The notes under the pieces were generated by a model that worked only from the letters and a program-made list of their open reading frames with translations, was not told the origin of the DNA and did no database searches. A stretch of DNA of 17,853 nt from Candidatus Wallbacteria bacterium (GTDB taxonomy: Bacteria; Muiribacteriota; UBA9980), in contig JAKJHQ010000001.1 in assembly GCA_022703765.1 (NCBI GenBank), forward strand, positions 1 through 17,853, given 5' to 3'. Both the position numbers and the translations under genes were made by a program. Of the stretch, positions 1-16,998 are shown in pieces; within the stretch, counting starts at the first letter, position 1; the number at the start of each line of letters is the position of its first letter.

Positions 1-2867
1 AAATTTGTCGTACTCGTCCGCTGGCGCATTCTCTTTTCTAACGCGTCAATTAAATTATCGCGCTTTTCAGCGATTTCGTCTTCTATCGCAAATATGTGCT
101 CGCGCATTTTCCGCTTTTTCTGCTCTAGCTTTGCGATCTGCTCCTGCAGGCCTCCCTGTTCCTCGAGAGTGGGCGCCTGCCTCGCCTGACGCTGAAGTTC
201 GCGTATCTGACGCTTTATGTCGTCGAGCTCCTTCTGGGCGGCAATCTCCATATCCTCGGCCCATTTATCGAGCTGGTCGCGAGCTTCGCTGAAGTGGCGA
301 TTATTTTCTTCAAGGTTTCTGGCGATCGTCGCATTGACATGACGCTCGGTTTCAAGTCTCAGTCTTTCGGCCGTTTTACCGTCGATTTTATCGAGCGCCT
401 GATTTACCGAAGCACCGCAGTTGAATAGTTTTTCGCATGTCTGATGATCTATATTGCCGCCGGAATCGTCAAAAGCTGAAAAGAGCAAATATTCATCACT
501 TTCAAACGAATCGATCTTTAAATGTGATAAATTAAGCCAGCCGGCCTTTCCTTTTAGGCCTTCAATGACGGTATTTTTAAAAGCATGGTTCGTAACATCG
601 AATGATACTTCCGAAGGCGGGCAATCGGCGTCTTTAGCGCGGTTTATTGAAAATTCGCCGAGCGGATGGCTCAGGCGGTATAAAAATTCACCGAGCGCAT
701 TATCTTTGTTTTTGGATATCAGATAATATGTTCCGATAGAAATTTTCTTGTCGGGTGTTTTAGAGAGCGCGAAGGCGAGTTTTTCATCGTCGAATTTAGC
801 GAACTCCGCGAGTGAATATTTCGTTACCGCCCAGAACAACCGGCCTATACGGTCTAATTTATCACGAGTGCCGAGTAAATTGACTTTAAGACGCTCATGA
901 ACGTCTTCATCGAAATGCTCGAGCAATAATTTACGGGTGTCCTTCATCTTAATCTTTATCTGTTCGTCAAGCTCCGCCTGCAATTTCGCGAACGCCGCTT
1001 CTATTTCGGCCGTACTCCTGCACTGCTGGTATATCTCGAGCACACGCCGCTCGAAATCGACGCCCGATTCAATCGAGCCCAGAACGTCGTCTGACGCGCC
1101 GAATAACCCTGTAAATAGATTAAACTTGTTTTCGAGCAATTCGTAAACACGCCTGTCGGCTTCGTTTTTTTCGTTTAAAAAATTGATGACGACGACGTCA
1201 TGCTTCTGACCATAACGGTGACATCTTCCTATGCGCTGCTCGATTCGCTGAGGGTTCCAGGGCAGATCGAAATTTATCACGAGCGAGCAGAATTGAAGGT
1301 TAATACCTTCAGAAGCCGCTTCTGTGGCGAGCATTATGCACGATTCATCACGGAAATGGTCAATTATGGCCGTGCGCGAATCGATGCTGCGCGATCCTGA
1401 AACGCGACCGGTTTTTTTGTTTTTTTCAACCCACTGGTTATAAATCGAAGTCGAGCCTGCGTCGTCATTGCTTCCATTGAATAACAATACTTTACCCGCA
1501 TAGCCGCTGGCCTCGAGAAATTCTTTAAGATAGTCCTGCGTTCTTCGCGATTCGGTAAAAATTACGGCTTTTTTAGCCGCGCCCATTTCTTCCATTTTTG
1601 TAAAGCCTATTTCAAGCGCTTTGATCAATGCTTTCGCTTTGGTATCGACGCCTATTCCTCGCGCCCAGCGAATGTAGCCCTCGATTTCGTCGATTTCGGC
1701 TTTTAATTTATTAATATCGATTTTCGGTTCTTCGGTATTGGCCGCTTCAAGCGCCTCATCGGATTTTTCTACTTCAAAGTCTTCCTCGTCTTCGAGTATT
1801 TCATCGAGCAGATCGTCGTCAAGCGTTTCATTCAATATCAATCGGTCAACGACGCCGGCATTTTTTTGGGTTTCTTCGAGAAGCCGCTTCAATCTGTCGC
1901 GCATGATCTCAAGAGTGCCGGCTACGGCCCGCGGCGACGACGCCAGAACTTTACGCACGATCAAAATCAAAAGATGCTTTTGGTTGTTCGGTATTGCATA
2001 ATTGTCATCTTTTTTTAAAAAGTCGGAAATGGCCTCGTATAATTTATGCTCCTGATCGGTAGGTTTAAAAGGCCTTGTTATAAGTTTTCTTTCGGTATAG
2101 CGAATGTATTCGAGCACCTGGCGCCGTAAAGTCCGCCAGCAGAAAGACCTGATTCGATGGCGCAGCCCTTCCAGATCGCCGCCGTAATTTACATATTGCG
2201 TCCGAAACGATGGAAGATCGCCGAAAAATCTTTCATCTATCAGCAGTGAAAGCCCGTATAATTCGAGCAGTGAGTTTTGCAGCGGCGTCGCCGTCAGCAA
2301 TACTTTTCGCCGGTCTTCGGTCGCCCATTTGATCTTCTGGCCTATGCGGTTACTCTGACGATAAGAGTTTCTTAACTTGTGCGCTTCATCTATTACCACA
2401 AGGTCCCAGGGCGTCTGTTTTATCACGTCAGCCTTCGCTCCGGCAAAATGCATGGAACAAACTACAACGGCATTATTTTTAAACGGATCAGGGTTTCCGT
2501 TTTTAACCTGTTCGCGGTGCGTTTTGGCATCGAGAACGGTCGTCGGAAGGTTGAATTTTTCTGAAAGCTCGATCGCCCATTGTTTTCTGATCGACGCTGG
2601 AGTGATTACAAGAATTTTTCTGCGCCTTTCAGCCCAATGCTGGCATATCACAAGCCCGGCTTCGATGGTCTTGCCTAGCCCGACTTCATCCGCCAGCAAA
2701 ACACCCTTAGAAAGAGGCGAGCGCAGAGCGAATATGGCAGCTTCTATCTGGTGCGGGTTCAAATCGACGCAGGCGTCGAAAAGCGCATTGCCGAGGCGGT
2801 CGATAGACCGGCCGCCGGTGCGCGAAAGCTCATAAGCGAAGTATTTGGCGTGAAATGGAGTGGTCAT
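1..2867 (-). CDS. SNF2-family (DEAH-box) helicase with a C-terminal coiled-coil extension. It is 3'-partial: the C-terminus lies beyond the window start.
   Basis: I translated the reverse complement by eye from the ATG at 2867-2865. The N-terminus reads MTTPFHAKYFAYELSRTGG...DLNPHQIEAAIFAL...LLADEVGLGKTIEAG (SNF2_N motif I, Walker A). A DEAH box (VVIDEAHKLRN) and a TATPLQNSLLELY block follow. The Helicase_C motifs ATEAASEGINLQ and WNPQRIEQRIGRCHRYGQ lie near nt 1200-1500. No stop appears in this frame down to position 1. The plus-strand ORFs the track lists in this region are shadow ORFs. Confidence 0.85.
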   Translation of the reverse strand, partial: MTTPFHAKYFAYELSRTGGRSIDRLGNALFDACVDLNPHQIEAAIFALRSPLSKGVLLADEVGLGKTIEAGLVICQHWAERRRKILVITPASIRKQWAIELSEKFNLPTTVLDAKTHREQVKNGNPDPFKNNAVVVCSMHFAGAKADVIKQTPWDLVVIDEAHKLRNSYRQSNRIGQKIKWATEDRRKVLLTATPLQNSLLELYGLSLLIDERFFGDLPSFRTQYVNYGGDLEGLRHRIRSFCWRTLRRQVLEYIRYTERKLITRPFKPTDQEHKLYEAISDFLKKDDNYAIPNNQKHLLILIVRKVLASSPRAVAGTLEIMRDRLKRLLEETQKNAGVVDRLILNETLDDDLLDEILEDEEDFEVEKSDEALEAANTEEPKIDINKLKAEIDEIEGYIRWARGIGVDTKAKALIKALEIGFTKMEEMGAAKKAVIFTESRRTQDYLKEFLEASGYAGKVLLFNGSNDDAGSTSIYNQWVEKNKKTGRVSGSRSIDSRTAIIDHFRDESCIMLATEAASEGINLQFCSLVINFDLPWNPQRIEQRIGRCHRYGQKHDVVVINFLNEKNEADRRVYELLENKFNLFTGLFGASDDVLGSIESGVDFERRVLEIYQQCRSTAEIEAAFAKLQAELDEQIKIKMKDTRKLLLEHFDEDVHERLKVNLLGTRDKLDRIGRLFWAVTKYSLAEFAKFDDEKLAFALSKTPDKKISIGTYYLISKNKDNALGEFLYRLSHPLGEFSINRAKDADCPPSEVSFDVTNHAFKNTVIEGLKGKAGWLNLSHLKIDSFESDEYLLFSAFDDSGGNIDHQTCEKLFNCGASVNQALDKIDGKTAERLRLETERHVNATIARNLEENNRHFSEARDQLDKWAEDMEIAAQKELDDIKRQIRELQRQARQAPTLEEQGGLQEQIAKLEQKKRKMREHIFAIEDEIAEKRDNLIDALEKRMRQRTSTTN

Positions 2868-2990
2868 TAATAATTCCGTCACTTAACCTGGATATTATAT
2901 AATACCGCTAAATTATACTATAATTTAAACAAAATATGAAGTAAAATTTGATAATTTAGCAATAAAAAAGCGACGAGTATTTTACTTATT
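2868..2990 (-). promoter_or_regulatory. AT-rich upstream region of the SNF2 helicase gene. It probably carries a sigma70-type promoter, including a minus-strand TATAAT around 2912-2917.
   Basis: A non-coding stretch with very low GC lies immediately 5' of the helicase ATG. On the minus strand the sequence reads ...tatagTATAATttagcgg.... I could not identify a clear -35 element. Confidence 0.3.
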
Positions 2991-3282: not shown

Positions 3283-4422
3283 TTAAGAAAGGCAAACTCT
3301 AAAACCGAGGCTGTTATTATGATATGAAGGGGTGAAATTAATATAGCGAAGGGCCGACCGGCAATTTTCGGGAAGGCTGTCCCAGCCGCCGCCGCGCGCG
3401 ACGCGATTAGATCCTGTGACGGGCCCTTCAGGGTCGGTCTGAAACTGTTTTGAATAACTGCCGTACCAATCGGCGCACCATTCCCAGACGTTGCCGCACA
3501 TGTCATATAATCCCCATTTGTTGGGTTTTTTAAGCCCTACCGGGCACGTCGATTTTGAATTCCCTGCATACCAGCAGTAATTTCCGTCAAAATCATATCC
3601 CCAGTAATGCGTCGAAGCAGTTCCGGCGCGGCATGCATATTCCCACTCGGCCTCGGAAGGCAGATGGAATTTTTCTTCAGCCAGTTTCATGCCGTTGAGT
3701 TTCACAATGAAATTCCGGCAATCGTTCCAGGAAACATTTTCCACGGGATGATTACGGCTCTTTTTAAAATGGCTCGGGTCGCTTTTCATGATTATTTTAT
3801 ATTGTTCACGGGTCACCGGGTATTTGCCGATCCAGAATCCTTTCGTGATTTTGACTTTATGCGCCGGCTTTTCATCATCGCGCCCGTTATCATCGCCCAT
3901 TATAAAAGCGCCAGGCGCAATATACAACATGTCGAGCGCAACGCCGGCGCCTAAATAAAAAGACCTGGCGGCGCCGGTTTTATAAACCTTAATTACAGGC
4001 GGATCAGCCGATGAATTTTCTTTTCGAGTGTAATTATCGCGGCCGTCGCGGCTATCGTTGCCATTGCGGTAATCATCCTCACGATTTGAATTGGATCGGT
4101 TAAAACGATCTTCAGTGATCAATTTCAAAGATAGCGCGATCAGATTAACCGTCGAACCGGCTAATTCGTTTTTTAATCCATGTTCTTCGGCTAAACGATT
4201 GGCAAGCCTTTTCAACAAGGACTCCAGCGGGATATTTTCGTTATAACTCAGCAATTCTTTCGCTACCCCGCTTCGAACCGCGGCCATGACAAGGTTTATC
4301 TCACGCTTATAAGCGCCGCAAAGGTCCTTTAGCAGACCTTCGAGCCTTTTTTCGTCAAGGTATATCAGATTTCCATGATTTTCTAATATTTCGAAAAGTT
4401 TAATTTTTACTAGATCATTCAT
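3283..4422 (-). CDS. Two-domain protein. The N-terminal ~100 aa form a helical adaptor-like domain that is shared with the TPR protein at 9156-10307. The C-terminal part is a formylglycine-generating-enzyme-like (FGE-sulfatase/SUMF1/DUF323) domain.
   Basis: A 379-aa ORF. The C-terminal part carries FGE-family hallmarks: HKVKITKGFWIGKYPVTREQY, VSWNDCRNF, LPSEAEWEYACRAG, YDMCGNVWEWCADWY, RVARGGGWDS and a terminal GFRVCLS. The start ATG overlaps the stop of the upstream gene in an ATGA arrangement at 4419-4422, which indicates translational coupling. Confidence 0.8.
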   Translation of the reverse strand: MNDLVKIKLFEILENHGNLIYLDEKRLEGLLKDLCGAYKREINLVMAAVRSGVAKELLSYNENIPLESLLKRLANRLAEEHGLKNELAGSTVNLIALSLKLITEDRFNRSNSNREDDYRNGNDSRDGRDNYTRKENSSADPPVIKVYKTGAARSFYLGAGVALDMLYIAPGAFIMGDDNGRDDEKPAHKVKITKGFWIGKYPVTREQYKIIMKSDPSHFKKSRNHPVENVSWNDCRNFIVKLNGMKLAEEKFHLPSEAEWEYACRAGTASTHYWGYDFDGNYCWYAGNSKSTCPVGLKKPNKWGLYDMCGNVWEWCADWYGSYSKQFQTDPEGPVTGSNRVARGGGWDSLPENCRSALRYINFTPSYHNNSLGFRVCLS

Positions 4423-4808
4423 CGGTCGCTACCGGAGCTGATGTTATCGATTGAGCCGGACAGTTCGCCTTTGCCGCCGCACCAGCGGCACGTCACGAAT
4501 TTTACGACGCCGTCCCAGCAGTTAATTTTGCCGCAGGAGCATTTGAATATACCTTTCGACTCGCAATAAGGGCAGCCTTTGTAAGTTTCACCAAAATCAA
4601 AACTGCCGGCTATCGTTGTTTTATCGTAGCCTTCTTTGCTGGCCTGGTTTTCTTTTACCGGAAACGCCCAATCGCCAATCCATCGGTTCCGTGATTTTTC
4701 CTCGAACCGTATGCCGTAGAGCTTGCCGGTTTTAAGGCAGCGAACGGCCGCGACGGCCACGTTAAGAAGCGGAAAGCCTTTTTCTTTATTTTCCCTGAAC
4801 TCGTTCAT
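4419..4808 (-). CDS. Small Cys-rich zinc-ribbon protein and fourth gene of the TerY-P-type operon.
   Basis: A 129-aa ORF containing CPYC...CSCGKINCWDG...CRWCGGKG. It lies 4 bp after the kinase stop and overlaps the next start. Its C-x-C-G...C-W-D pattern resembles the zinc ribbon in the C-terminal tail of the kinase (CKCGAEN...CWDC). Confidence 0.6.
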   Translation of the reverse strand: MNEFRENKEKGFPLLNVAVAAVRCLKTGKLYGIRFEEKSRNRWIGDWAFPVKENQASKEGYDKTTIAGSFDFGETYKGCPYCESKGIFKCSCGKINCWDGVVKFVTCRWCGGKGELSGSIDNISSGSDR

Positions 4809-4812
4809 TATG

Positions 4813-6129
4813 CTACGCCCTTATTTCGCCCGTGGCTTTGCCGAAGTTGATCTTCAGGCCGTTAAGTATCGGCGCGTTCCTGCCGGGCTCAACGTCTTTT
4901 AAAGTGCCGTCCGGCATTGTGATATTCCACTTTTCGCTCGAATCGTTCTTCAGACCCCATTGCCCCGGTTTATTCGGGTTTTGATTCACTTCGGCCACTA
5001 ATATTGAAAAATCGAAGATCTTACTGTGATCGTCGATGTGGTGAGGATGGATTTTAGTGTCGTAGTTGAGCATCACTATATTGCCGCCGATATTTATTCT
5101 CGGAGGAAGCGTCATCGCTTTCCGGCAATCCCAGCATGTAAGTGATTTATTCTTTTGAAGTTTTTCCTTATCATAAAAATTCTCGGCGCCGCACTTGCAG
5201 TACATTACCGAGTCGAGAAGCCTTATCAGGGCCATGCGCCATTCGCTTTCGCGCACCCGGCCGTTGACCGGATCTTTTATTCCGGTAGTAAAGGCTTTCA
5301 TGAAAAGGTTCTTGATGAATTCCGGATAAATATCCCAGAAGGCGATGGCGTTGTCGTGATAACCTTTTACCGGCCGGTTGGAGTCGTCCGCCGGATCGTA
5401 AATAAAGACGGGCTCGGTGCCGTAAAGTTTGTTCATGGCCGGCAGGTCGAAACATTTGATGTCCGACTCTTTCTTGCCCTCGAGCGGATGGCTGGTCATG
5501 AGTATGTAAAATAAAAGAACGGCGAGGGAGTAAAGATCGGTATCCTTGTTCGGCTTCGAATCGCCGCGAACGACCTCGGGCGCCATGAAGCGGGGAGTAC
5601 CGAGAACTCCGCCGTCGCTCTGGCCGTCAATCGACACGTTATCGTTGTCGCATATCAGGACTTCGCCCGTATTCGGGTCGAAAAAAGCATTGCCGAATGA
5701 AATATCCCTGTAGCAAAGGCCTTTTGAATGAAGCTGAAGAAAGCTGTTGGCTAGTTCGAAACCGACCCTCACGAGCACCGCTAATTTTGGCGATATGCGG
5801 CGTTTCATGAGGTCCACTATATTGCCGAACCTTTTCTCGCGCAGCGGCATGACGTATCCAAATCCGGGCGTTGACGACTCAGTGACGATCTCGGCCGGCC
5901 AGAGGAACCTGGCGTTAGGCGCGCCTTTTTCGATTAGTTTTTCAAGCGCGGTTCGCTGCTGAGGAGTGGCTGAATTAGGATAATACCATTTCAGCGCGAC
6001 CGCCTGCCCGCCCAGATCGGCCTTATAAACTTCGCCCTGGCCGCCGCCGCCTAAAAATTCTCCCACGCGGCAGTCTAATTTGGATATTTCAGTCTTGACG
6101 ACCTGATTTTTTTTTAAGATCTCGCTCAT
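4813..6129 (-). CDS. Atypical Ser/Thr protein kinase (the TerY-P kinase) with a C-terminal zinc-ribbon-containing extension.
   Basis: Glycine loop LGGGGQGEVYKA and a VAIK-equivalent, VALKWY. The catalytic-loop motif is CYRDISFGN (YRD instead of HRD), and ICDNDN replaces DFG. An APE motif is present (GTPRFMAPE). A C-terminal ~150 aa segment contains CKCG...CWDC. Confidence 0.85.
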   Translation of the reverse strand: MSEILKKNQVVKTEISKLDCRVGEFLGGGGQGEVYKADLGGQAVALKWYYPNSATPQQRTALEKLIEKGAPNARFLWPAEIVTESSTPGFGYVMPLREKRFGNIVDLMKRRISPKLAVLVRVGFELANSFLQLHSKGLCYRDISFGNAFFDPNTGEVLICDNDNVSIDGQSDGGVLGTPRFMAPEVVRGDSKPNKDTDLYSLAVLLFYILMTSHPLEGKKESDIKCFDLPAMNKLYGTEPVFIYDPADDSNRPVKGYHDNAIAFWDIYPEFIKNLFMKAFTTGIKDPVNGRVRESEWRMALIRLLDSVMYCKCGAENFYDKEKLQKNKSLTCWDCRKAMTLPPRINIGGNIVMLNYDTKIHPHHIDDHSKIFDFSILVAEVNQNPNKPGQWGLKNDSSEKWNITMPDGTLKDVEPGRNAPILNGLKINFGKATGEIRA

Positions 6130-6188
6130 AATATCAACCTTTTTACTTCGCGAAAATTTTTGTGAACTAAACTTTTCGAGTTATTACC

Positions 6189-7112
6189 CTATATGTATTT
6201 TTTGTAGTCTTTTATTATCATTCCCAGAGTGACGTCGTCGCCCGACATTTTAGCCGAAGCTTCCAGCCATTCCCTGATGCTGCATTCTGTCGAGACCGCG
6301 CCTTCGCTTCGTAAAATGTCCAGAATGTCCTTTCCTACCTTAAAAAAATTATCATCATCACGGAATGAGTTGGAATAACCGTCGGTCGAGATCAGTATCA
6401 GCTCGGGAAATTTAAAATCAGCATTCACCGGGTAGAATTTAATTCGGAACTCGTTCCACGGGTCTTTCGAACAAAACGAAGTGGTTTCGTTGGCGATGAG
6501 TTTTTCGTCCCTGGCGACCGCCCTGACCGTCGTTCCGTCCTCGTAAACGCTTAAAATATCGCCGTCGCCGAGCTGCATGTAAAACATGAACGCATTATGA
6601 ATGCCGGCCATCAGAAGCGTCGAACCGTAAACTATTTTATTGTCCTTTAAAACTGCCTCGACGGACCTCGCATCCGACTTTTTCTCTAATTCCTTCAATT
6701 CTTCTTCGGTAAACGGGTTTCTTGAAACGTCGGTCTCGACCTCTTCGCGCCAGGCCTGAACGATCTTACGCGGGAGCCTGTTCTCGAGTTCGTCTTTGAT
6801 AAGGGACAGATTGTCGATATTATTCTTCGAGCATTCGTCAAAAAAATCCCTGACGGCTCTCACGGCTACTTTGACCGCATACTCCGAGCCGGTATGGCTT
6901 CTGAAACTCTTGACGCTTCCATGGCCGTCGGATATGGCCAGGACCAGAGGAATTGTATGGCCGGCAGCACATTCCGTCACCCAGTGGTTTTCGGCGTCCT
7001 GATTCTTGAGCCCCACCCGGGCGTGGGACGAGCCTATGACGCTTCCTGATATGATATTCCACGAAACGATCTTTTTATCGATCTGGTCGGGCATAAATTT
7101 TTCGATCACCAT
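6189..7112 (-). CDS. PP2C-family Ser/Thr phosphatase (the TerY-P phosphatase).
   Basis: PP2C motifs are present: GLKNQDAE, LAISDGHGS, QLGDGDI and ISTDGYSNSF. The start overlaps the vWA gene end by 7 bp. Confidence 0.85.
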   Translation of the reverse strand: MVIEKFMPDQIDKKIVSWNIISGSVIGSSHARVGLKNQDAENHWVTECAAGHTIPLVLAISDGHGSVKSFRSHTGSEYAVKVAVRAVRDFFDECSKNNIDNLSLIKDELENRLPRKIVQAWREEVETDVSRNPFTEEELKELEKKSDARSVEAVLKDNKIVYGSTLLMAGIHNAFMFYMQLGDGDILSVYEDGTTVRAVARDEKLIANETTSFCSKDPWNEFRIKFYPVNADFKFPELILISTDGYSNSFRDDDNFFKVGKDILDILRSEGAVSTECSIREWLEASAKMSGDDVTLGMIIKDYKKYI

Positions 7113-7807
7113 ACGTCGCCAGAACCGGCGGGATCCTGGGCCGGCGCCTGCGGAATAGGAACGTTGGTCGAGCCGTTCTGGGCGTCTTTAGCCTGGCTGG
7201 CAGGCGCGGAAGCCGATTTAAGGACGGCGGTAGAGACCCATTTAATATATTTAACGAGCGATTCGGGATTATTCGCCTCGAGCGGCTTTATCTCCGGATG
7301 GCCGATGAACTTCTGCAGCACGTCTTTATCGGCATCGGAGCCTATGGCTATCGATATGCGGACCGATTTTCTGCCCCAGGGCAGATCCATAAGTTCTTTC
7401 AGGCCGGACGCATAATCGTCCGTCGGCTGGCCGTCGGAGATCAGTACCAGCACGGGAGGCAGCGCCCTGTCCGACATCGGGGGGATCTTTAACTGTTCAG
7501 CCGTCATTTTAAGCGCGTGGCCGAGATCGGTAACGCCATCCGCGCTGAGGTCGGACCATTTGAAATCTCTGACCGGCGTCGGCTGCGTAATGTGCCACTG
7601 GGCACCGCTGGAAAACTTTATGGCGCGCACCAGCACTTCGGCGTTGGGGTTCTCGTCCGCTACTTTTTGCATGTGAGGTATAGACTCGCGTATTGCGTTA
7701 TTCAGAGACTGGATTTTGCCGTCAACACTCATCGAGCCCGAGCAGTCGCAGATCCATATAAAATGAAGCGGACGGGTCGCAAGCTCGCCGCCTGGAAGTT
7801 TTGCCAT
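7106..7807 (-). CDS. TerY-like von Willebrand factor A (vWA) domain protein, the first gene of the TerY-P triad.
   Basis: A MIDAS motif (DCSGSMS, i.e. DxSxS) follows a hydrophobic strand (HFIWICD). The vWA motif LVLISDGQPTDD is present. On the minus strand a GGAGGA RBS (plus-strand tcctcc at 7817-7822) sits about 9 nt upstream of the ATG. Confidence 0.85.
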   Translation of the reverse strand: MAKLPGGELATRPLHFIWICDCSGSMSVDGKIQSLNNAIRESIPHMQKVADENPNAEVLVRAIKFSSGAQWHITQPTPVRDFKWSDLSADGVTDLGHALKMTAEQLKIPPMSDRALPPVLVLISDGQPTDDYASGLKELMDLPWGRKSVRISIAIGSDADKDVLQKFIGHPEIKPLEANNPESLVKYIKWVSTAVLKSASAPASQAKDAQNGSTNVPIPQAPAQDPAGSGDVW

Positions 7808-8035: not shown

Positions 8036-9142
8036 ATGGGGTTTTATTTCAGAAAATCTAAAAAAATAGGGCCGTTCAGGATCAACTTTTCAAACAAGGG
8101 GATCGGCTTCTCTTCAGGCGTAAAAGGCGCACGCATTTCCACCAATTCAAAAGGAACTTATATAAATATGGGAAGCAACGGCCTCTATTACAGAGAAAAG
8201 ATCGGGCCGGGAATACCGCAGTTGAGTTTTTCTAACTTATTCGGATTGAATAAAAATAGCGGCAAGGGCCGAGCGCCGAACATCCCGAACGCCATTAAAG
8301 CGCCCGCCATAGACGATGGCGTCGATATTAACAATCTGCTTGCCGGGTCAAACGCTCAACTCGTAACGAAAATTAACGATAAAATAAAAACGGCCGGGAT
8401 CATGCCTCTGGTCGTTGCGTTCATAGTTATTTCAGGTTTTTTCGTCATCGTTTCCTATCCGTCTAAAATTTTGATAGTTATGGTCATCGCGATCATATCC
8501 TTCGTTGCGGCCAACATTTACGACAACTCACGGAGAACTTCCGAATTATTTTACGATCTGGACGATCCCGCGCGCGACGATTTCGACAAACTAAACCAGG
8601 CGTTATGCTCGTTATCCACGGCGCGCTTGTTGTGGCAGGTCAATGTGGCCCGCTCCGCAACGCCGTCGGCCGACAATAAGTACGGCCTCAAAGTTACGGG
8701 CCGCCGTGGGATCACTCTGTCAGACGCGCCTCCGCTTTTCATCGAGACCAATCTCGAGGTGTTTTCGATAGATATAGGCGAAGCCTCGCTTTATTTTTTA
8801 CCCGACAGGGTTCTGGTCTGCAAAAATTCGACCTATGCTTCGATCGGCTACGGCGATTTAAAAATAAAGTATACGGCGCTGTCCTTCGCCGAATATGAAA
8901 CCGTCCCGGACGACGCCGGCGTCATATCGCAAACCTACCTGCATGCGAACAGCGACGGCTCTCCCGATAAAAGATATTCGAACAACCCGCAGATACCTGT
9001 CGTTTCTTACGGGCTGCTCAAGTTATATTCAACCGGGGGATTGGAAATAAATCTGATGGTCTCGAATAATATTATCGCCGAAAAATTTTTTAACGATCTT
9101 TCTTCATGCATGAAAAGCATCAGTTCGAGGCTTTTGCCGTAA
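8036..9142 (+). CDS. DUF4236-family protein. It has the conserved N-terminal MGFxFRKSxKIGPFRINxS module, two central transmembrane helices and a C-terminal domain of unknown function.
   Basis: The N-terminus MGFYFRKSKKIGPFRINFSNKGIGFSSGVKGARIS matches the DUF4236 signature. A hydrophobic stretch, IMPLVVAFIVISGFFVIVSYPSKILIVMVIAIISFVAANIY, is consistent with two transmembrane segments. Confidence 0.7.
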   Translation: MGFYFRKSKKIGPFRINFSNKGIGFSSGVKGARISTNSKGTYINMGSNGLYYREKIGPGIPQLSFSNLFGLNKNSGKGRAPNIPNAIKAPAIDDGVDINNLLAGSNAQLVTKINDKIKTAGIMPLVVAFIVISGFFVIVSYPSKILIVMVIAIISFVAANIYDNSRRTSELFYDLDDPARDDFDKLNQALCSLSTARLLWQVNVARSATPSADNKYGLKVTGRRGITLSDAPPLFIETNLEVFSIDIGEASLYFLPDRVLVCKNSTYASIGYGDLKIKYTALSFAEYETVPDDAGVISQTYLHANSDGSPDKRYSNNPQIPVVSYGLLKLYSTGGLEINLMVSNNIIAEKFFNDLSSCMKSISSRLLP

Positions 9143-9155
9143 ATGCGGCGCGGCC

Positions 9156-10307
9156 CTACTGAACATTTGGGGCGAGCTTCGCCAATTCCGCCTTGCATTC
9201 ATCGAATTCGGGGCAAAGTTCCAGGGCGCGGTTATAGTAAAACGCGGCCTTTTCGCGGTCGCCTCTCTGACGGTATGTGTTAGCGAGCCTAAAGCAATAC
9301 TCGTCGTTATCGGGAAAAAGCCTTAAAGCTTCCTCGTAATATTTAACGGCTGAGGCGTAGTCATCAATTTGATAACAGCAGTTTGCCAGTTCAAAGTAAT
9401 AAAAATTATTATTCGGATCTATATCAACAGCTTTTTTCAAATATTTGACCGCTTCGGAATAGCCGTTCCGGGCTATCTTGATCCTGGCCGTCTGATAGTA
9501 ATATTCGGATTTTGAGTCATCGATCGATAACGCGGTATCAATATTTTTAAGAGACCTATCATAGTCAATTAATTCAAGATACGCGCAGGATAATTTGTAA
9601 TAGTAGCCGGCGGCGTAAGCAGTAGCTTGCGCGGTTAATTTTTCATAGTCGGCGGCGGCGGCCTTAAAATTCGCGATGTTAAAATTAGAGTTGGCGCGGT
9701 ACAGATAAGCCATAGAATAGTCAGGGTTCAGCTCGAGCACATGGCTGAAATCGTCGATCGCTTTTTCAAAAAAACCCAGATTATAGTAAGCCAGGCCGCG
9801 GGCATTGTATAGTTCGAAGTAAAACTGGTCGTATTCTAGAGCCTTATCGAAGCAGACAAGTGCCTGCTCATATTTAAACTCACTGACGAGTTCCAGGGCG
9901 CGGTTGTAATGAGTAAAAAAATCCCTTTCAGGGCGTTGCGGCCCGCTGAATACTATCCGTTCCGTCACGGGCTCCTGAGAATCTTCCAGAGAGTCTTCCG
10001 GCAATATCCCGAATGCGAACGCCCAGGAGTCGACTGCCCAGAATGCGCATTCTTTGGTAGTACCGTAATTGTCGATGATCTTTTTTGCAATGGACTGGCG
10101 GTCAAGCTGATAAGGAACCCTTTTTGCGTTTATCGCCGCGACGGATTCTTTTTGCGCGCATAGAAGCAGAAATATCTCGAGTTTGCGCGAACCGAAAAGA
10201 TCCTTAAAAAGACTTTCCAGGCGCTTCGGATCGTTTACGACATTAAAGCCGTAAATGTCAATAATTTCCTTTAATTTTTTTCGCACGTTATTGCCGTTTT
10301 TATCCAT
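9156..10307 (-). CDS. TPR-repeat protein. Its N-terminal ~100-aa domain is paralogous to the N-terminus of the FGE-like protein.
   Basis: 383 aa. There are multiple TPR-like repeats (for example AYYNLGFFEKAIDDFSHVLELNPDYSMAYLYRANS and ALRLFPDNDEYCFRLANTYRQRGDREKAAFYYNRALEL). The N-terminus, KLKEIIDIYGFNVVNDPKRLESLFKDLFGSRKLEIFLLLCAQKESVAA, aligns with the FGE-like protein segment KLFEILENHGNLIYLDEKRLEGLLKDLCGAYKREINLVMAAVRSGVAK. Confidence 0.85.
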   Translation of the reverse strand: MDKNGNNVRKKLKEIIDIYGFNVVNDPKRLESLFKDLFGSRKLEIFLLLCAQKESVAAINAKRVPYQLDRQSIAKKIIDNYGTTKECAFWAVDSWAFAFGILPEDSLEDSQEPVTERIVFSGPQRPERDFFTHYNRALELVSEFKYEQALVCFDKALEYDQFYFELYNARGLAYYNLGFFEKAIDDFSHVLELNPDYSMAYLYRANSNFNIANFKAAAADYEKLTAQATAYAAGYYYKLSCAYLELIDYDRSLKNIDTALSIDDSKSEYYYQTARIKIARNGYSEAVKYLKKAVDIDPNNNFYYFELANCCYQIDDYASAVKYYEEALRLFPDNDEYCFRLANTYRQRGDREKAAFYYNRALELCPEFDECKAELAKLAPNVQ

Positions 10308-10391: not shown

Positions 10392-10442
10392 TTGACATTT
10401 TTGATATAAACGATTGACATCAAAATAGGTTAGTATTATAAT
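10392..10442 (+). promoter_or_regulatory. Consensus sigma70 promoter for the zorA-like gene. The -35 TTGACA is at 10414-10419, followed by a 17-nt spacer and the -10 TATAAT at 10437-10442. A second TTGACA lies upstream at 10392-10397.
   Basis: Read directly from the sequence. An AGAGG RBS at 10462-10466 sits 6 nt before the ATG at 10473. Confidence 0.5.
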
Positions 10443-10472: not shown

Positions 10473-12560
10473 ATGCAGGAATATTCGAATTTAATAAATC
10501 TTACGATGTGCTGCTTAATAGGCATTGCATTTTTGATTTTCAGGATATCTCTGATCATCCCCATCAAGAATTTGAGGAAAAAACTTACATTTATCAATAA
10601 CAGGCTGACCTTATTCAAGTTCAATGACGAAACCGAGCTGGCCGTATTTTTAAAAGAAAATTTTAAAAATTTCGCCACACTTGCGGAAATTTATACGGAC
10701 TTCATAGAAGAAAGGTCTTTGAATATAATTGAATATTCTGGCAAAACATACAGCCACATCAAACATTCCGATTTTTTCAGCGCCGAAAATATTTCAGAAA
10801 AATTGCTCAATTTAAGGATGATAAATTCCATACCCGGCATAATGACAGGCCTTGGCATACTTGGCACCTTCATCGGCCTTATAATAGGCATTTCTTCAAT
10901 CCATATAACGAAGGGCGAGATATTACTAAACGACATTCAATCCCTTCTGTCGGGCATGAACATAGCCTTCTTAACTTCGATCGTTGGAATAATACTCGGA
11001 CTGTACTGGATCCTTAATGAAAAGCGCCATTATAAGAACCTTTTGATCGAGATTGAAAAATTTAATATCAACATAGAAAAGTACTATCCGACGATAGATC
11101 TCGAGCACATCATCATAAAAAGCATGATCTCGAACATTAAGAACAACGAGATCCTGCCCCAGAAATTTGAAAGCGTAAATAAGACGCTTGAGCTGACGGC
11201 CGACAGGATAATCGAATCTCAAAACAAAAGTTTCTCTTTGATATCATCGAGCATAAACTCAGGTCTTAAAGACGAATTCCTGCCTGAAATAAAGAAAGCG
11301 ATCGATCAATCGTTCGAATACACCAATAAGGCGATGAGCTTTCTGACGGAGTTCACCGCGACGCTTGACACACTGAAAGACGATCTTTTGAGGGTTAGCG
11401 CGGAGCACAAAGAGAACGCAATAACCGTCAAAACCGAGATCAAAGCCATAATGAACTCCATAAAGGAAAGTTTCGAGATAACTTCTAAATTCAGGGATTT
11501 CGCCAAGACGCTCAACGCAACGTTTGAAAAGGCGACGGGCAACATGAATCAAACTGTAAATAAAATGAATGAATTTTCAAATAAAATAGTCGAGTCGGCC
11601 GATAAATTCGAGGCCGGGTTAAATCAGTTCTCTGAAAAATTTCTGAACGGGAAACAGCAGGTCGAGATAAATATCAAAAAACTAGCGTCAGAAATATCGA
11701 TTTTGACTAATAGCTTCAATGATACTTTTGAAAAGATCAAGGTCGAAGCGGTTGATTTCAGCGGCGAACTCGATCGTATCGTTCATAAGGCCATTTTCAT
11801 ATTCAACAAACAACTCAGCTGCTATGAAGGCCTGCCAAATAAAATAGCGGACGTCGTGGCCAACAAGATCAACAGGGCGTTCGACAGCAACAAACTCGCA
11901 GATTCGGTAAAGGCGATAAGCGACGAGCTGGTGATCAAGTTTATCGGTATAAAGGATATGCTGAAGAACGCGACCGACAGCCTCGGCGGCAGCATCGCCA
12001 ATCTGGGCGACACCTTTGAAGTATATTCGCAGCAGATGAAAAGCCTGCCGGAAGATATCAGCATTGAAATATCCAAAAAAATCCAGACCGCGTTCGACAG
12101 TTCTGATAACTTCAAGATGTTCGGCGAGTTCAAAAACTCTCTTAATGAATTTAACAATAATTTCTCGGCGCAGGTCAAGGAAGCCGCCAGGGCCATCGGC
12201 GGCTCAGTAATGTCGAGCGTCAAGGACATTGAGTCGTTCCTCATGAAGACCAATAAGATTTTTGGCGATTTCCAGCGTTCCATAAATGGCATCGAAGACA
12301 AAATGCGCGAGACAGGCGAATTCTTAGAGAAATCAGCCGGCCTGCTGGGAACGAACCTGAGCCAAAGTTTCAACCAGACATTCTCCGTTTTTGACGAGCA
12401 GTTGTCAAAAATTTCAATGCGCCTGAGTGGCACTATAACGGAGATCGATTCAGCGGTTAAGGATATTCCAGCAGTGATAAACGAATTTCAGAACGCGCTC
12501 GACTCGCAGATCGGTTTAATCCAAAAGGAAGCGGTAAAAAATAATAATTTAAAACAATAA
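10473..12560 (+). CDS. zorA: ZorA-like protein, with a MotA/TolQ/ExbB-type proton-channel transmembrane core and a ~500-aa cytoplasmic coiled-coil tail.
   Basis: 695 aa. The transmembrane segments are LINLTMCCLIGIAFLIF, SIPGIMTGLGILGTFIGLIIGISSI and GMNIAFLTSIVGIILGLYWIL, a MotA/ExbB-like signature. A long heptad-rich alpha-helical tail follows. The gene sits immediately upstream of a MotB/OmpA partner, as in Zorya. Confidence 0.75.
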   Translation: MQEYSNLINLTMCCLIGIAFLIFRISLIIPIKNLRKKLTFINNRLTLFKFNDETELAVFLKENFKNFATLAEIYTDFIEERSLNIIEYSGKTYSHIKHSDFFSAENISEKLLNLRMINSIPGIMTGLGILGTFIGLIIGISSIHITKGEILLNDIQSLLSGMNIAFLTSIVGIILGLYWILNEKRHYKNLLIEIEKFNINIEKYYPTIDLEHIIIKSMISNIKNNEILPQKFESVNKTLELTADRIIESQNKSFSLISSSINSGLKDEFLPEIKKAIDQSFEYTNKAMSFLTEFTATLDTLKDDLLRVSAEHKENAITVKTEIKAIMNSIKESFEITSKFRDFAKTLNATFEKATGNMNQTVNKMNEFSNKIVESADKFEAGLNQFSEKFLNGKQQVEINIKKLASEISILTNSFNDTFEKIKVEAVDFSGELDRIVHKAIFIFNKQLSCYEGLPNKIADVVANKINRAFDSNKLADSVKAISDELVIKFIGIKDMLKNATDSLGGSIANLGDTFEVYSQQMKSLPEDISIEISKKIQTAFDSSDNFKMFGEFKNSLNEFNNNFSAQVKEAARAIGGSVMSSVKDIESFLMKTNKIFGDFQRSINGIEDKMRETGEFLEKSAGLLGTNLSQSFNQTFSVFDEQLSKISMRLSGTITEIDSAVKDIPAVINEFQNALDSQIGLIQKEAVKNNNLKQ

Positions 12561-12638: not shown

Positions 12639-13460
12639 TTGTTCAACAAGCAATTAAAACAACACGATTTAAGCGATAAAAACGACTTTCTCATCTCGAT
12701 CTCAGACCTGATGACCGGGATAATGATGATCTTCGTGCTCACCCTTATCGCGGTCTTATACAGCAAAACGACCGATGTGGTTCAATACGTAAGAGAAATC
12801 GAGGCCAAGAAGGAAACATTAGCTAAAATACAATCCGAACTCGACCATAAAACCGAACAATTAAAGCTTAAAGAAAACGCGCTCGACTCAAAGGAGATCG
12901 AACTAAAATATTACAAAGACCAGATCGAAAAAATTATAGGCATCAAGAGCTCTATAATCAATCTGATCAAGGAAAAATTCGAACGGTCGTCGTCTAATCT
13001 GAAACTGGCAGTCGATCCGTTCACAGGGGCGATCCGGATAAGCGGCGATATTTTATTCGATACCGACTCCGACGCCATTAAAGAAGAATTCAAGCCTCTG
13101 CTAAAACTGCTGCTGGAAACTTACGTCAACATCCTATTCGACACTCAGGAGTTCATAGACCATCTCGCAGAAATAGTCATAGAAGGCCATGCGGACAACC
13201 GCGGCGACTACATTTATAATCTTGATCTTTCGCAGCGCCGCGCGCAGTCTATCATGAAATATTTCATTCAGGTGGTCGATCCGGCCAAAAAAGAGCTTTT
13301 CCAGAAATTCGTGACGGCGAACGGCAAATCGTTCAGCGTTCCGATCAAAGACCCGACCGGGAACGTCGATCTTGACAAATCACGCCGCATCGAGGTCAAA
13401 TTCAGGTTAAAGGACGACGAGGCGTTGAAAGAACTTTCGAAATTACTGGATCAAAAATAA
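12639..13460 (+). CDS. zorB: ZorB-like protein, with a MotB-type plug and transmembrane helix plus a C-terminal OmpA-like peptidoglycan-binding domain. The start codon is TTG.
   Basis: 273 aa. The DFLISISDLMTGIMMIFVL segment (MotB plug and transmembrane helix; compare the ZorB/MotB WISYADLMT motif) is present. The OmpA-like motifs GHADNRGDYIYNLDLSQRRAQSI are also present. Confidence 0.8.
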   Translation: MFNKQLKQHDLSDKNDFLISISDLMTGIMMIFVLTLIAVLYSKTTDVVQYVREIEAKKETLAKIQSELDHKTEQLKLKENALDSKEIELKYYKDQIEKIIGIKSSIINLIKEKFERSSSNLKLAVDPFTGAIRISGDILFDTDSDAIKEEFKPLLKLLLETYVNILFDTQEFIDHLAEIVIEGHADNRGDYIYNLDLSQRRAQSIMKYFIQVVDPAKKELFQKFVTANGKSFSVPIKDPTGNVDLDKSRRIEVKFRLKDDEALKELSKLLDQK

Positions 13461-13477: not shown

Positions 13478-14689
13478 ATGGCATCCGACTCGAATCGCGA
13501 CAAGGGAATATTTATAAATTTAAGCAGCTGCACGCCGACCAGACTTATCGAAGCGGCCGAGACGATCGCGCGTACGCATAAGCGGCACTCTAAAAATGAC
13601 GAGACGCTTTCGGCCGCGTCGGGGCCCGACAACTTTGACGAATTGCTCAAGAAGATAAAGCGCGGGGGCCGCAACGAACTCGTTAAAATAGCGTTCGCGC
13701 TCACCAGGCGGGAGGCTTTATTTTTATTGACCGCTTTAAAGAACGAAGATGATTCATTCTGCGATAAAGTCCTCGCCATAGTAGGACTTCGCAGACAGAT
13801 ATTCAAATTCTCGCTTTTCTGGAACGCGCTGGTGTTATCGCCCGAAAATAAAAATCTTTATTCATTGACGATCGCAACCACGTCGGCCGGAGGCGATCAA
13901 AAAAGGCCGGGCACGGAGGGCATAAATATGGTCGAAGCAGAGAGATTTTTCATCAAAAGTCAGCCGGCCTCTTTCATCGACGGCCTATTCATTTTATACC
14001 AGAATAAAAAATACATATTGAGTAACTTTTGCGCCTATTATTCGATACACAAAGACGGCTTTTTACACGGGCTGATGATAAAGAAGATTATGACGGGGTA
14101 CGAGCCTGAATTCGGAAGGCTTGAGGGCGACATCCAAATTTTTTCATATTTAACGAAGCACCTGTCAAAAGAAGAGGCGATTCAATTCGCCGGAAAATAT
14201 TTCAGCCAGACACCCGACGATGCCTGGAACGAGTTGATATTGAATTATTTTTTCCACCTGCTCGGAACGCCTTCCAACATGGACAACTGGAATTTCGTCA
14301 CGGGACCGGTTCTGAAAAAACTGCAGAACAGATACAGCATCGCCGAGATAAGAAAATTTTTCGACAAGCTCGACAAAGACAACGTCCGGTTCAACTTCTG
14401 GCAAAAGAACTACGGCCAGCGCTTCACGAACGCCTATAAATTCAGCCAGATAAACGCCATTCTAATGTATATCGAAAACATCGCGATCCTCGAATTCGCC
14501 AACATCGGCAACGCCTGTTACGTTTATAAAGCCGAATTCGCCGACCTGCTGATCAGAAAATTTTACAACTCATCATACGAGTCAAAACTGAAATATCCAG
14601 AACAAGCTCTGTTCAGGGTCATACACAAGCAGGACTGGCAGTACGAAGCGCTCGCGAGGATAAATAGCGCTATAGGTAATAAAATCTAA
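13478..14689 (+). CDS. Hypothetical 403-aa protein co-directional with zorAB. It may be a ZorC-like (EH-signature) protein or a novel Zorya partner. I found no nuclease or NTPase motifs.
   Basis: An ORF lies 17 bp after zorB on the same strand. The sequence is alpha-helical and aromatic-rich with no HNH, Walker or PD-(D/E)xK motifs. The ZorC-like assignment rests only on position and length. Confidence 0.55.
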   Translation: MASDSNRDKGIFINLSSCTPTRLIEAAETIARTHKRHSKNDETLSAASGPDNFDELLKKIKRGGRNELVKIAFALTRREALFLLTALKNEDDSFCDKVLAIVGLRRQIFKFSLFWNALVLSPENKNLYSLTIATTSAGGDQKRPGTEGINMVEAERFFIKSQPASFIDGLFILYQNKKYILSNFCAYYSIHKDGFLHGLMIKKIMTGYEPEFGRLEGDIQIFSYLTKHLSKEEAIQFAGKYFSQTPDDAWNELILNYFFHLLGTPSNMDNWNFVTGPVLKKLQNRYSIAEIRKFFDKLDKDNVRFNFWQKNYGQRFTNAYKFSQINAILMYIENIAILEFANIGNACYVYKAEFADLLIRKFYNSSYESKLKYPEQALFRVIHKQDWQYEALARINSAIGNKI

Positions 14690-14708: not shown

Positions 14709-15239
14709 TTATATATCATCTTCTTCGTCTTCTTGTTCAAATCTTCGTTCGCCTTCATACCGATCATAATATCCGTTATTTTCTTCAAATTCCTCCTCTT
14801 CAGTTATTTCTTTGAGCCTCCTTGTATATTCTAAGTAATCTCTTTCTTCATCAGCACTTATTTCATATTCAATCTCCTCTTCTTTTCTGAGACATATTTC
14901 TTCGTCATCATCCATAAGATCATCTAGATCGATTTCATAATCTCCTGATTCATGTATAATTTGTTCTTCGACATCACGATCTATTTCCTCTTCAGTTAAA
15001 TTTTCTATTTCTTCTTCATCAATTTCCTTTTCTTTTAAGTATTCTTTTTCTTCCTTTTCTTTTTCTCTTTCTTCTTTATTTCTAATTTCTCCTTCGGTTT
15101 CTTCAATATCACAACCACATATAGGACATTCACCGTCATCAGTTATATAACCATAATAACCACATTCCGGACAAGTAACTTCATCATCAAACAATATTAT
15201 ACTCCTATTTTCAAAACGTTGAAAAACATGATTATTCAA
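14709..15239 (-). CDS. Hyper-acidic zinc-ribbon protein (N-terminal CPEC...CPICGC followed by a ~130-aa Glu/Asp-rich tail). It is a candidate DNA mimic or regulator.
   Basis: 176 aa. About 45% of residues are D or E after the zinc ribbon. The gene is very AT-rich, with GAA/GAG codon runs. It starts 7 nt after the SF1 helicase stop. Confidence 0.65.
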   Translation of the reverse strand: MNNHVFQRFENRSIILFDDEVTCPECGYYGYITDDGECPICGCDIEETEGEIRNKEEREKEKEEKEYLKEKEIDEEEIENLTEEEIDRDVEEQIIHESGDYEIDLDDLMDDDEEICLRKEEEIEYEISADEERDYLEYTRRLKEITEEEEFEENNGYYDRYEGERRFEQEDEEDDI

Positions 15240-15246
15240 TCAGCAG

Positions 15247-16998
15247 TTATAATTTTTCAGAGTTTATAACTTCAGAACTCTCAATAATCTTCTTAAATAT
15301 TTCCGTTTCATCTTTCGAGAAGTAATTCTGGTTCAAAAGATAATCTCGGTTTCCAACAATTATCAGTAATTCTTTAGCACGCGAAAGTGCAACATTGATT
15401 AACTCTTTTCTTGCAGTAAGTCTTGTCGGTTTAACTTCGTCGTCGCAGATATTCATAATAATGACGCTTTTTTCCTGGCCCTGAAATGAATGAATCGTCG
15501 ATACCTGTACTTGTTCAAAATACTCTGGATTGATTTTAATGAGTTCAGTGGACTTTGCGAGAACCTCTTTAATTTTGACTATCTGGGCGTTATAAGGTGC
15601 GATAATGCCAATTTCTTCAGATTTAAATTCCTTATTGTTTACAAGTTTAATTGTTATTCCGGCAATCGCTTCGGCATGCTTTTCATTGAATCTTCTTTCT
15701 TCCGTTCCATTTATAACGGCGCCGTTTATGTTTTCAATTTTTCCCTTACAATTTATAAACACTATATTGCTTTTGAAAGTTCCTTTAATGTCTTTTTTTG
15801 CCGTGCCCGTCTTTAACTCGCCTTCGTAAAATAGATCGCTTACAAGATTTCCAATCGGCTCCTGCATCCTGTACTGCGTATCGAGAAATGCTGTTCTTTC
15901 GTCGTGCCGTTCAACCTTTGCCATATCAAAAATATTCCGGCTAAACCAGGCATTCGGCTTGTCGGCGTCATCCGGGAATATAGGAGGAAGCTGCATGGGA
16001 TCTCCACCCAGAACCACGCCTTTTTTGGCGTAATAACAAGCCGCGATGATTGCCGGTATGCTGGCCATGGACATTTCGTCTGCAATAACGAAATCAACCG
16101 GACCCGGATCAGCGGTTTTAGGCGAGGCAAGCGACGCAAAGTTAGTGGCTACGCAGGTACAAAGGCTCACATGCTCGTTCCATGTAAAAGCGTTTCGCTT
16201 GATCCTATATTGCCTGTTCTGATATATGTCTCGGCTAAAAATCTTTACCGAATCATGCATATTATCAACGCTGCCCGTTCTTGCGACCGTAATATTGAAT
16301 TTGTTGAGCGGCGAGGCTGATTCCAGTGTAGATATGAGGAGCTGGTCCAGTGCCTTATTTGATAAAGCGGTCAGCAAAACCCGCTTACCGTTTTTTATAA
16401 GATGAGATGCGAGAGCGCCCATAGTTTTGGTTTTTCCGGTTCCAGGCGGCCCCCATACGAATGTGATATTTTGCGATAATGCTTTTTTGACGGCCTTTAT
16501 TTGAGATTCGTTAAGTTTATCGGCGGCAAATGCAGCGACGACTTCCTTATGATCAGATAAAACCGATTTATCGAGTAGTGACGATACTATCTCGTTTGGG
16601 TTTGTCGAATTAATCGTCAAAAAATTCAAAAGATCGGCGGTTAATCTTCTGCCGTCCATAATATAATCGATTCCAAAATCTGTAATTTGTCGCAGATTAA
16701 AATTATCTATCCCGCTCGATCTTAAAACCGCTTTTTCAAATGTTACTTTAACCCCGTTTGAAACTTTTTCGAACTTTCCGTTAACGAATAGATCGCCGAC
16801 CCTGAACAACGGCTCATAAACGTATTTAATGTCTCTTAAAACCCTTTCGGGCGCGTTACGAAAAACAACTGAATAAGACCCGTCTGAATCGCTTTCACCA
16901 GCCTTTCCATACATAAAATAGCGGGCGCGGTTACGCGGCTCATCGAGACGGGTAATTTCAGATTTAACCGACTCCTGTATTTCATTAAGGTCAATCAT
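15247..16998 (-). CDS. Upf1/DNA2-like SF1B helicase (AAA_11/AAA_12 type).
   Basis: Q-motif LNESQIKAV, Walker A FVWGPPGTGKTKT, Walker B VIADEMSMAS, motif III VLGGDPMQLPPI, motif IV DTQYRMQEPIG, motif V VSTIHSFQGQEKSVII and motif VI VALSRAKELLIIVG. The start overlaps the upstream gene by 8 nt. Confidence 0.9.
   Translation of the reverse strand: MIDLNEIQESVKSEITRLDEPRNRARYFMYGKAGESDSDGSYSVVFRNAPERVLRDIKYVYEPLFRVGDLFVNGKFEKVSNGVKVTFEKAVLRSSGIDNFNLRQITDFGIDYIMDGRRLTADLLNFLTINSTNPNEIVSSLLDKSVLSDHKEVVAAFAADKLNESQIKAVKKALSQNITFVWGPPGTGKTKTMGALASHLIKNGKRVLLTALSNKALDQLLISTLESASPLNKFNITVARTGSVDNMHDSVKIFSRDIYQNRQYRIKRNAFTWNEHVSLCTCVATNFASLASPKTADPGPVDFVIADEMSMASIPAIIAACYYAKKGVVLGGDPMQLPPIFPDDADKPNAWFSRNIFDMAKVERHDERTAFLDTQYRMQEPIGNLVSDLFYEGELKTGTAKKDIKGTFKSNIVFINCKGKIENINGAVINGTEERRFNEKHAEAIAGITIKLVNNKEFKSEEIGIIAPYNAQIVKIKEVLAKSTELIKINPEYFEQVQVSTIHSFQGQEKSVIIMNICDDEVKPTRLTARKELINVALSRAKELLIIVGNRDYLLNQNYFSKDETEIFKKIIESSEVINSEKL

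Follow-up and report, generated by a model that had tools for sequence, protein, structure and literature searches.

The present work concerns a 17,853-nt stretch of DNA (the window) from the Candidatus Wallbacteria contig JAKJHQ010000001.1, and in particular an open reading frame (ORF) coding for a protein of 403 amino acids (aa), the third gene of a co-directional zorA-zorB-zorC cluster. Our results identify this protein as a divergent member of the known ZorC family, an assignment shown by sequence and fold homology, conservation of the EH-signature network, the third position in the operon, and purifying selection; the new part is the operon itself, a zorABC arrangement without zorD. We consider it probable that the ORF encodes a naturally short ZorC (~390-400 aa) of a type I-like Zorya, acting as a DNA-binding adaptor, with destruction left to a protein encoded elsewhere or to another partner.

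ZorC was the sole family matched by the 403-aa ORF across three profile libraries (PADLOC, NCBIfam and Pfam), the PADLOC ZorC1 match covering residues 322-394 (3.5e-8). A word-indexed search of 5.8 billion proteins with the single sequence as query returned two close relatives only, a 100% identical partial protein with an annotated origin in a Candidatus Wallbacteria metagenome-assembled genome and a 76% identical homologue; with a 63-sequence alignment, a query that was swamped by candidates, four matches were obtained. An exhaustive HMMER search of 1.84 billion cluster representatives recovered 84 proteins at E<=1e-3, and 72 of the 85 collected ZorC sequences are 350-424 aa long, many aligning end to end; this search was seeded with the short form, and its counts are no measure of overall long-ZorC frequency. 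A scan of metagenomes and genomes with a three-sequence ZorC alignment yielded no related loci, and plasmid and phage collections gave no match.

The 63-sequence profile convincingly matched one PDB protein only, E. coli ZorC (8r68_A, E=2.1e-15), and its comparison by hhalign to a 572-aa ZorC gave a probability of 98.8%. In the printed alignment to 8r68_A, D301, R304 and W308 fall on D332, R335 and W339, E339 on E400, and H383 on H443; these E. coli residues constitute the EH-signature electrostatic network according to Hu et al., and the E400A and H443A substitutions abolish both DNA binding and defence (PMC11946911). Across the 63 sequences, R304, W308, A346, Y350 and W387 are invariant (W387 with a spacing unlike that of E. 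coli W458), and W271, F295, E339, F340, G344, Y348, K372 and H383 are conserved in at least 90%. A family-wide Trp at position 285 is replaced by Arg here and in the 76% relative, and by Ile in a more distant relative of 31% identity (P0003), which keeps all the EH residues. The original prediction, made from the sequence alone, had described the ORF as an orphan, being either a truncated EH-signature ZorC or an undescribed Zorya component, and had proposed a search for the characteristic E and H residues. Both are present (E339 and H383), and the ORF is a ZorC, neither an orphan nor an undescribed component; the ZorC half of the first alternative stands, while the notion of a truncated or damaged gene does not, given that a length of ~390 aa is shared by dozens of clusters.

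An AlphaFold2 model computed with the 63-sequence alignment as input (mean pLDDT 90, pTM 0.80) is helical over residues 21-315, as had been anticipated, and its comparison to PDB structures by Foldseek, a check that had also been proposed, returned ZorC 8r68 as the sole match at E<=1e-3 (probability 1.00, 395 columns). The 403-aa protein is thus predicted to have the three-dimensional fold of ZorC. Runner-up folds were small non-catalytic alpha+beta modules, several of them DNA-binding (the TnsE C-terminal domain, the McrB N-terminal domain and the T4 MotA C-terminal domain), and no PD-(D/E)xK, HNH or other nuclease fold was found among the Foldseek matches of the model, which argues weakly that the EH module binds DNA rather than cutting it. 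The module is basic (isoelectric point 9.2). The aromatic richness noted from the sequence was measured at 13.6% (W+F+Y), and the reported lack of catalytic motifs held, neither a Walker A pattern nor a Pfam match to a nuclease being present.

One difference with respect to E. coli ZorC (EcZorI, 8r68; Hu et al., Nature 2024, PMC11946911) is length, with 560 aa there and 403 here at an identity of ~14-21%. The protein ends 20 residues past H383, and the long 572-aa ZorC carries, according to hhalign, an insertion of ~30 residues before the beta-sheet and ~115 extra C-terminal residues; compared to the E. coli protein, that ~30-aa insertion, the linker and the domain of residues 487-560 are missing. 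This C-terminal globular domain is also missing throughout the short-form subfamily, including members of complete zorABCD operons, and is therefore not a universal feature of the family. The short-form ZorCs of five zorABCD loci (L003, L007, L008, L012 and L014) are 384-393 aa long and, in spite of an identity of ~20-26%, align end to end with the protein studied here, share its invariant R304, W308, A346, Y350 and W387, and likewise follow zorAB; they precede a co-directional ZorD, which this one does not. Since most of the collected sequences fall in the same length class, ~400 aa represents a conserved architecture and no locus-specific truncation. Existing models are already short (PADLOC ZorC1 profiles of 426 and 465 positions, Pfam model of 423), so the short architecture appears to be covered by PADLOC and Pfam. 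In a JGI record of identical DNA (L006), the source gene caller annotated the C-terminal 204 aa of ZorC only; the full 403-codon frame is open there and 100% identical, the short annotation being an artefact that hides the true length.

The neighbouring subunits correspond to those of type I Zorya. ZorA, with its long cytoplasmic tail, matches PADLOC ZorA1 (6.8e-32, residues 8-667 on profile positions 27-645 of 699) and Pfam MotA_ExbB above cutoff (24.5 bits), and the peptidoglycan-binding ZorB matches PADLOC ZorB1 (2.7e-61) and Pfam OmpA (40.7 bits); both score best against type I models and lie upstream of zorC on the same strand. Asp23 of ZorB is placed just before the transmembrane helix (..ISISDLMTG..), is invariant in a four-sequence ZorB alignment and, judged by position and not by alignment, would be equivalent to the residues mutated in previous studies, D26 in E. 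coli ZorB and D24 in Shewanella (PMC11946911; PMC11890865). As in Zorya types II (ZorE, HNH) and III (ZorF/ZorG), the ZorAB core is accompanied by a subtype-specific soluble partner; unlike in those types, no HNH, DUF3348 or DUF2894 protein is present here. The ORF was confirmed at the coordinates originally given downstream of zorB, with 17 nt between the two genes. A promoter-like site (TTGACA-17 nt-TATAAT, 12/12 consensus matches) occupies the 165-bp divergent intergenic region between zorA and a TPR gene, and no terminator-like site was found on the + strand inside zorA-zorB-zorC. The three reading frames are intact, and the ratios of nonsynonymous to synonymous divergence (dN/dS) relative to the locus of the 76% relative (L001) are 0.03-0.09, that of zorC being ~0.09 with dS near saturation, so that the true ratio is probably lower; these values indicate that zorC evolves under purifying selection.

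The truly unusual point of the locus, which was not raised in the original prediction, is the absence of zorD. Next to zorC lies a convergent gene, which ends 19 nt past the zorC stop, and tblastn with the N-terminal halves of four canonical ZorDs found no match at E<=1 in the window or in L001, L005 and L006, whereas as a control these halves match each other at 1e-7 to 1e-61; no ZorD remnant or pseudogene downstream of zorC came up in this search. The only SNF2 gene of the window, at its left end, was considered as a displaced ZorD and rejected, as it is DrmD-like and carries the SNF2 core N-terminally, ZorD carrying it C-terminally. DrmD is the helicase of DISARM, and any other DISARM genes would fall outside the window. 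In contrast, five distant short ZorCs on informative contigs, P0039 (L003), P0004 (L007), P0007 (L008), P0006 (L012) and P0013 (L014), are each followed immediately by a co-directional zorD (0-20 nt gap or overlapping) coding for an SNF2 protein of 913-942 aa, or in L003 for a cut ORF matching ZorD1 at 4.6e-34; many complete type I systems thus contain a short ZorC as a regular component.

Two of the loci recovered, L006 and L015, correspond to the window DNA itself. The layout of the window is shared by L001, with identities of 76% (ZorC), 86% (ZorA) and 92% (ZorB), and in L005, on the 92-kb contig FeGlu_10004092, zorABC (ZorC 31%, ZorA 42%, ZorB 63%) is followed by an AMP-binding enzyme. None of these four loci contains ZorD, L005 being covered by 10 kb of sequence on both sides. 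ZorB-based scans added one useful locus (L016). Over the sequence available, members of this ZorAB lineage were encountered as ZorAB or ZorABC, never as ZorABCD. The literature searched contains no description of a zorABC operon that is conserved in the absence of zorD, nor of a ZorD-less, orphan ZorAB or type IV Zorya; types I-III are the only ones listed by Hu et al. and Mariano et al.

On the basis of E. coli type I Zorya (PMC11946911), the proton-driven ZorA5B2 motor would sense the envelope perturbation caused by an infecting phage and signal via the long ZorA tail; activation of the motor would in turn recruit ZorC, whose basic EH module would bind the incoming DNA there. Degradation of this DNA is, in canonical systems, the task of the SNF2-nuclease ZorD. 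With no ZorD in the operon or in the two relatives, ZorC would most likely act as a DNA-binding adaptor, a subunit recruited to the phage-activated ZorAB motor, and a protein encoded elsewhere, or another partner, would carry out the destructive step. In the short form, binding would rely on the EH module and the helical core alone.

Several observations weigh against this interpretation. Regarding the family assignment, the matches to the NCBIfam ZorC model (NF041789; 1.2e-6, 27.4 bits vs a cutoff of 490) and to Pfam EH_Signature (PF15611; 1.2e-4, 22.0 bits vs a gathering score of 27.5) are below cutoff, and the global Foldseek TM-score to 8r68 is low (0.27). Regarding DNA binding, the missing linker and globular domain correspond in E. 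coli ZorC to a region (487-560) necessary for DNA binding and defence (PMC11946911). Regarding defence, the Fig. 2a legend of PMC11890865 covers omission constructs of a Zorya I system and gives a significant difference from the vector control for the complete system alone; going by that legend, zorD-less canonical type I is not significantly protective, and a ZorABC-only system might have no means of killing phage. A defence role of this lineage is not guaranteed either, as the ZorB proteins next in similarity (45-50% identity) belong to bare ZorA-ZorB pairs in housekeeping contexts, and neither ZorC nor ZorD nor ZorE lies within 10 kb of those in L019, L020 and L021. Finally, the flanks of the relatives cover ~10 kb on each side of metagenomic contigs, and zorD could sit elsewhere in the genomes. 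As for the bare pairs themselves, those of L020 and L021 are syntenic, with DegT aminotransferase, radical SAM, polyprenyl synthase and secretin genes as neighbours, and the stand-alone pairs of L019, L020 and L021 combine an unusually long ZorB (439-458 aa) with a short ZorA (516-536 aa).

Some of these points would fit a decaying remnant, i.e., a type I Zorya that has lost zorD and is being lost altogether, leaving ZorC useless: the omission results mentioned above, the requirement of both ZorC and ZorD in E. coli (PMC11946911), and the ZorAB-only state of the closest ZorB relatives (L016/L019, L020 and L021), as expected from stepwise loss. Nevertheless, the integrity of the three genes, their low dN/dS values, the retained consensus promoter and the recurrence of the same ZorD-less operon with every EH residue in a second lineage (31% ZorC identity) make decay unlikely. 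A split locus of an otherwise ordinary type I Zorya, with zorD or another effector located elsewhere in the genome and acting in trans, is in keeping with the usual pairing of short ZorCs with ZorD and with the limited flanks available; no such arrangement was seen among the sampled relatives, zorD came right after zorC in every informative case, and L005 lacks it over its 10 kb on both sides, so we regard this explanation as improbable too.

The convergent SF1 helicase and the Tiamat-like SACS/NOV_C protein could also be proposed as replacements of ZorD recruited by ZorC, since a helicase together with the restriction-endonuclease-like NOV_C domain would cover the ZorD activities, and the adjacency is kept in the window (and L006) and in L001, where the gene ends overlap by 4 nt in place of the 19-nt spacer. 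The histories of the two modules differ, as deduced from their synonymous difference proportions between the window and L001, which are saturated in zorA (0.76), zorB (0.63) and zorC (0.66) and amount to 0.24 in tmtA and 0.36 in the helicase gene, rising towards the zor side, and from the small ORF between the modules, non-homologous in the two loci. This favours two separate mobile defence units side by side; the three-fold gap in synonymous divergence and the absence of helicase/TmtA from L005 disfavour their membership in the Zorya operon. Tiamat has been described as a single-gene defence system. The SACS/NOV_C neighbour, which matches its TmtA, is a separate gene on the opposite strand and is unrelated to the 403-aa ORF. 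A surrogate role of these proteins is a quite remote prospect. Even less probable, in our opinion, is that this ZorAB lineage serves some other cellular role as a membrane motor, with ZorC as a lineage-specific accessory. The housekeeping surroundings of the nearest ZorB relatives, syntenic in two genomes, speak for it; the window operon, in contrast, is placed between defence-type genes (DrmD-like SNF2, a VWA/PP2C/kinase triad and the Tiamat-like gene), and the EH network on which E. coli defence depends is strictly kept in it.

Among these explanations, a naturally short ZorC serving as a DNA-binding adaptor accounts best for the locus. As to annotation, zorC (short form) can replace hypothetical as the name of the ORF, which belongs to a branch of the family that escapes the single-sequence thresholds of Pfam and NCBIfam. 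Current models consider ZorD as the executioner and the C-terminal domain of ZorC as necessary for DNA binding; a ZorABC lineage with neither feature, under purifying selection, offers a natural test of the EH domain alone, as well as of the coupling of the ZorAB motor to other outputs. It is conceivable, albeit doubtful, that zorABC, possibly together with the TPR gene, constitutes a stable fourth Zorya architecture in which a ZorC devoid of the C-terminal domain works without ZorD. If true, an EH protein would suffice as the ZorAB output, e.g., by blocking or sequestering the injected DNA, or would recruit a non-ZorD effector. This system-level proposal is put forward as a hypothesis, derived from the comparison of two lineages on metagenomic contigs.

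Table 1. Coordinates of the features discussed, in the window and in related loci.
Feature	Locus	Position	Strand	Remarks
SNF2 helicase ORF, at least 960 aa	Window	3..2882	-	Runs off left window end; DrmD, PADLOC 1.6e-208
Operon: VWA, PP2C phosphatase, Ser/Thr kinase, TerY_C metal-binding protein, FGE-sulfatase-domain protein	Window	3283..7807	-	
~110-aa domain, N-terminus of FGE protein	Window	4090..4422	-	
368-aa protein	Window	8036..9142	+	N-terminal DUF4236 (5e-16), central hydrophobic stretch
TPR protein, 383 aa	Window	9156..10307	-	Divergent from zorA; TPR Pfam matches
~110-aa domain, N-terminus of TPR protein	Window	9990..10307	-	
Promoter-like site	Window	10414..10442	+	Predicted, consensus match only
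zorA, 695-aa MotA/ExbB-like subunit	Window	10473..12560	+	Long cytoplasmic tail
zorB, 273-aa MotB-like subunit	Window	12639..13460	+	OmpA-type peptidoglycan-binding domain
zorC, short form, 403 aa	Window	13478..14689	+	ATG start
EH-signature alpha/beta module of ZorC	Window	14291..14686	+	Residues 272-403
ZorC D301	Window	14378-14380	+	EH module
ZorC R304	Window	14387-14389	+	EH module
ZorC W308	Window	14399-14401	+	EH module
ZorC E339	Window	14492-14494	+	EH module
ZorC H383	Window	14624-14626	+	EH module
176-aa hyper-acidic ORF	Window	14709..15239	-	Long Glu/Asp runs; N-terminal CPxCG...CPxCG zinc ribbon
SF1 helicase	Window	15247..16998	-	AAA_11/AAA_12; MkoA-like 7e-62
SACS/NOV_C protein	Window	16991 to beyond window end (17853)	-	Cut by right window end
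SACS/NOV_C protein, full length, 1056 aa; TmtA of Tiamat 4.8e-78	L006	4676-7846		
zorC, full 403-codon frame	L006	1163-2371		
zorC as annotated, 204 aa	L006	1760-2374		
~110-aa domain in two TPR proteins and AMP-binding protein C-terminus	L005	12976-13308, 6327-6800, 15164-15334		
Bare ZorAB pair	L019	1-2437		Also L016/L019
Bare ZorAB pair	L020	8451-11377		
Bare ZorAB pair	L021	8344-11320		

Regarding the remaining genes, no non-Zor gene other than the TPR gene keeps its place across the window, L001 and L005. The TPR gene has the same position and orientation beside zorA in L001, where the partial match is 78% identical, and in L005, where the best of several TPR matches shows 31% identity over the full length. 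No enzymatic domain was found in its product, and it is possibly an accessory gene of this zorABC lineage. A domain of ~110 aa, with no Pfam match, occurs at the N-terminus of both the TPR and the FGE protein, and in L005 it is present in two TPR proteins and at the C-terminus of the AMP-binding protein encoded directly downstream of zorC, where it is 40% identical over 111 aa; this domain may mark proteins working together in this neighbourhood. Rfam, tRNA and repeat scans of the window revealed nothing relevant.

The VWA/PP2C/kinase operon resembles a TerY-P-type phosphorylation triad by domain content; its VWA and PP2C proteins are unrecognised by PADLOC and its kinase matches mad6 and PD-T4-6. 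Paralogous VWA, PP2C and kinase genes also flank zorABC in L005. The DUF4236 protein lies between this operon and the TPR gene, and is missing from the matching position of L005. On the other side, the convergent module comprises three genes. Its acidic ORF, between zorC and the SF1 helicase, has no family match, with an unrelated 206-aa ORF in its place in L001, and the helicase gene overlaps the end of the SACS/NOV_C gene by 8 nt, forming a two-gene arrangement of TmtA and helicase.
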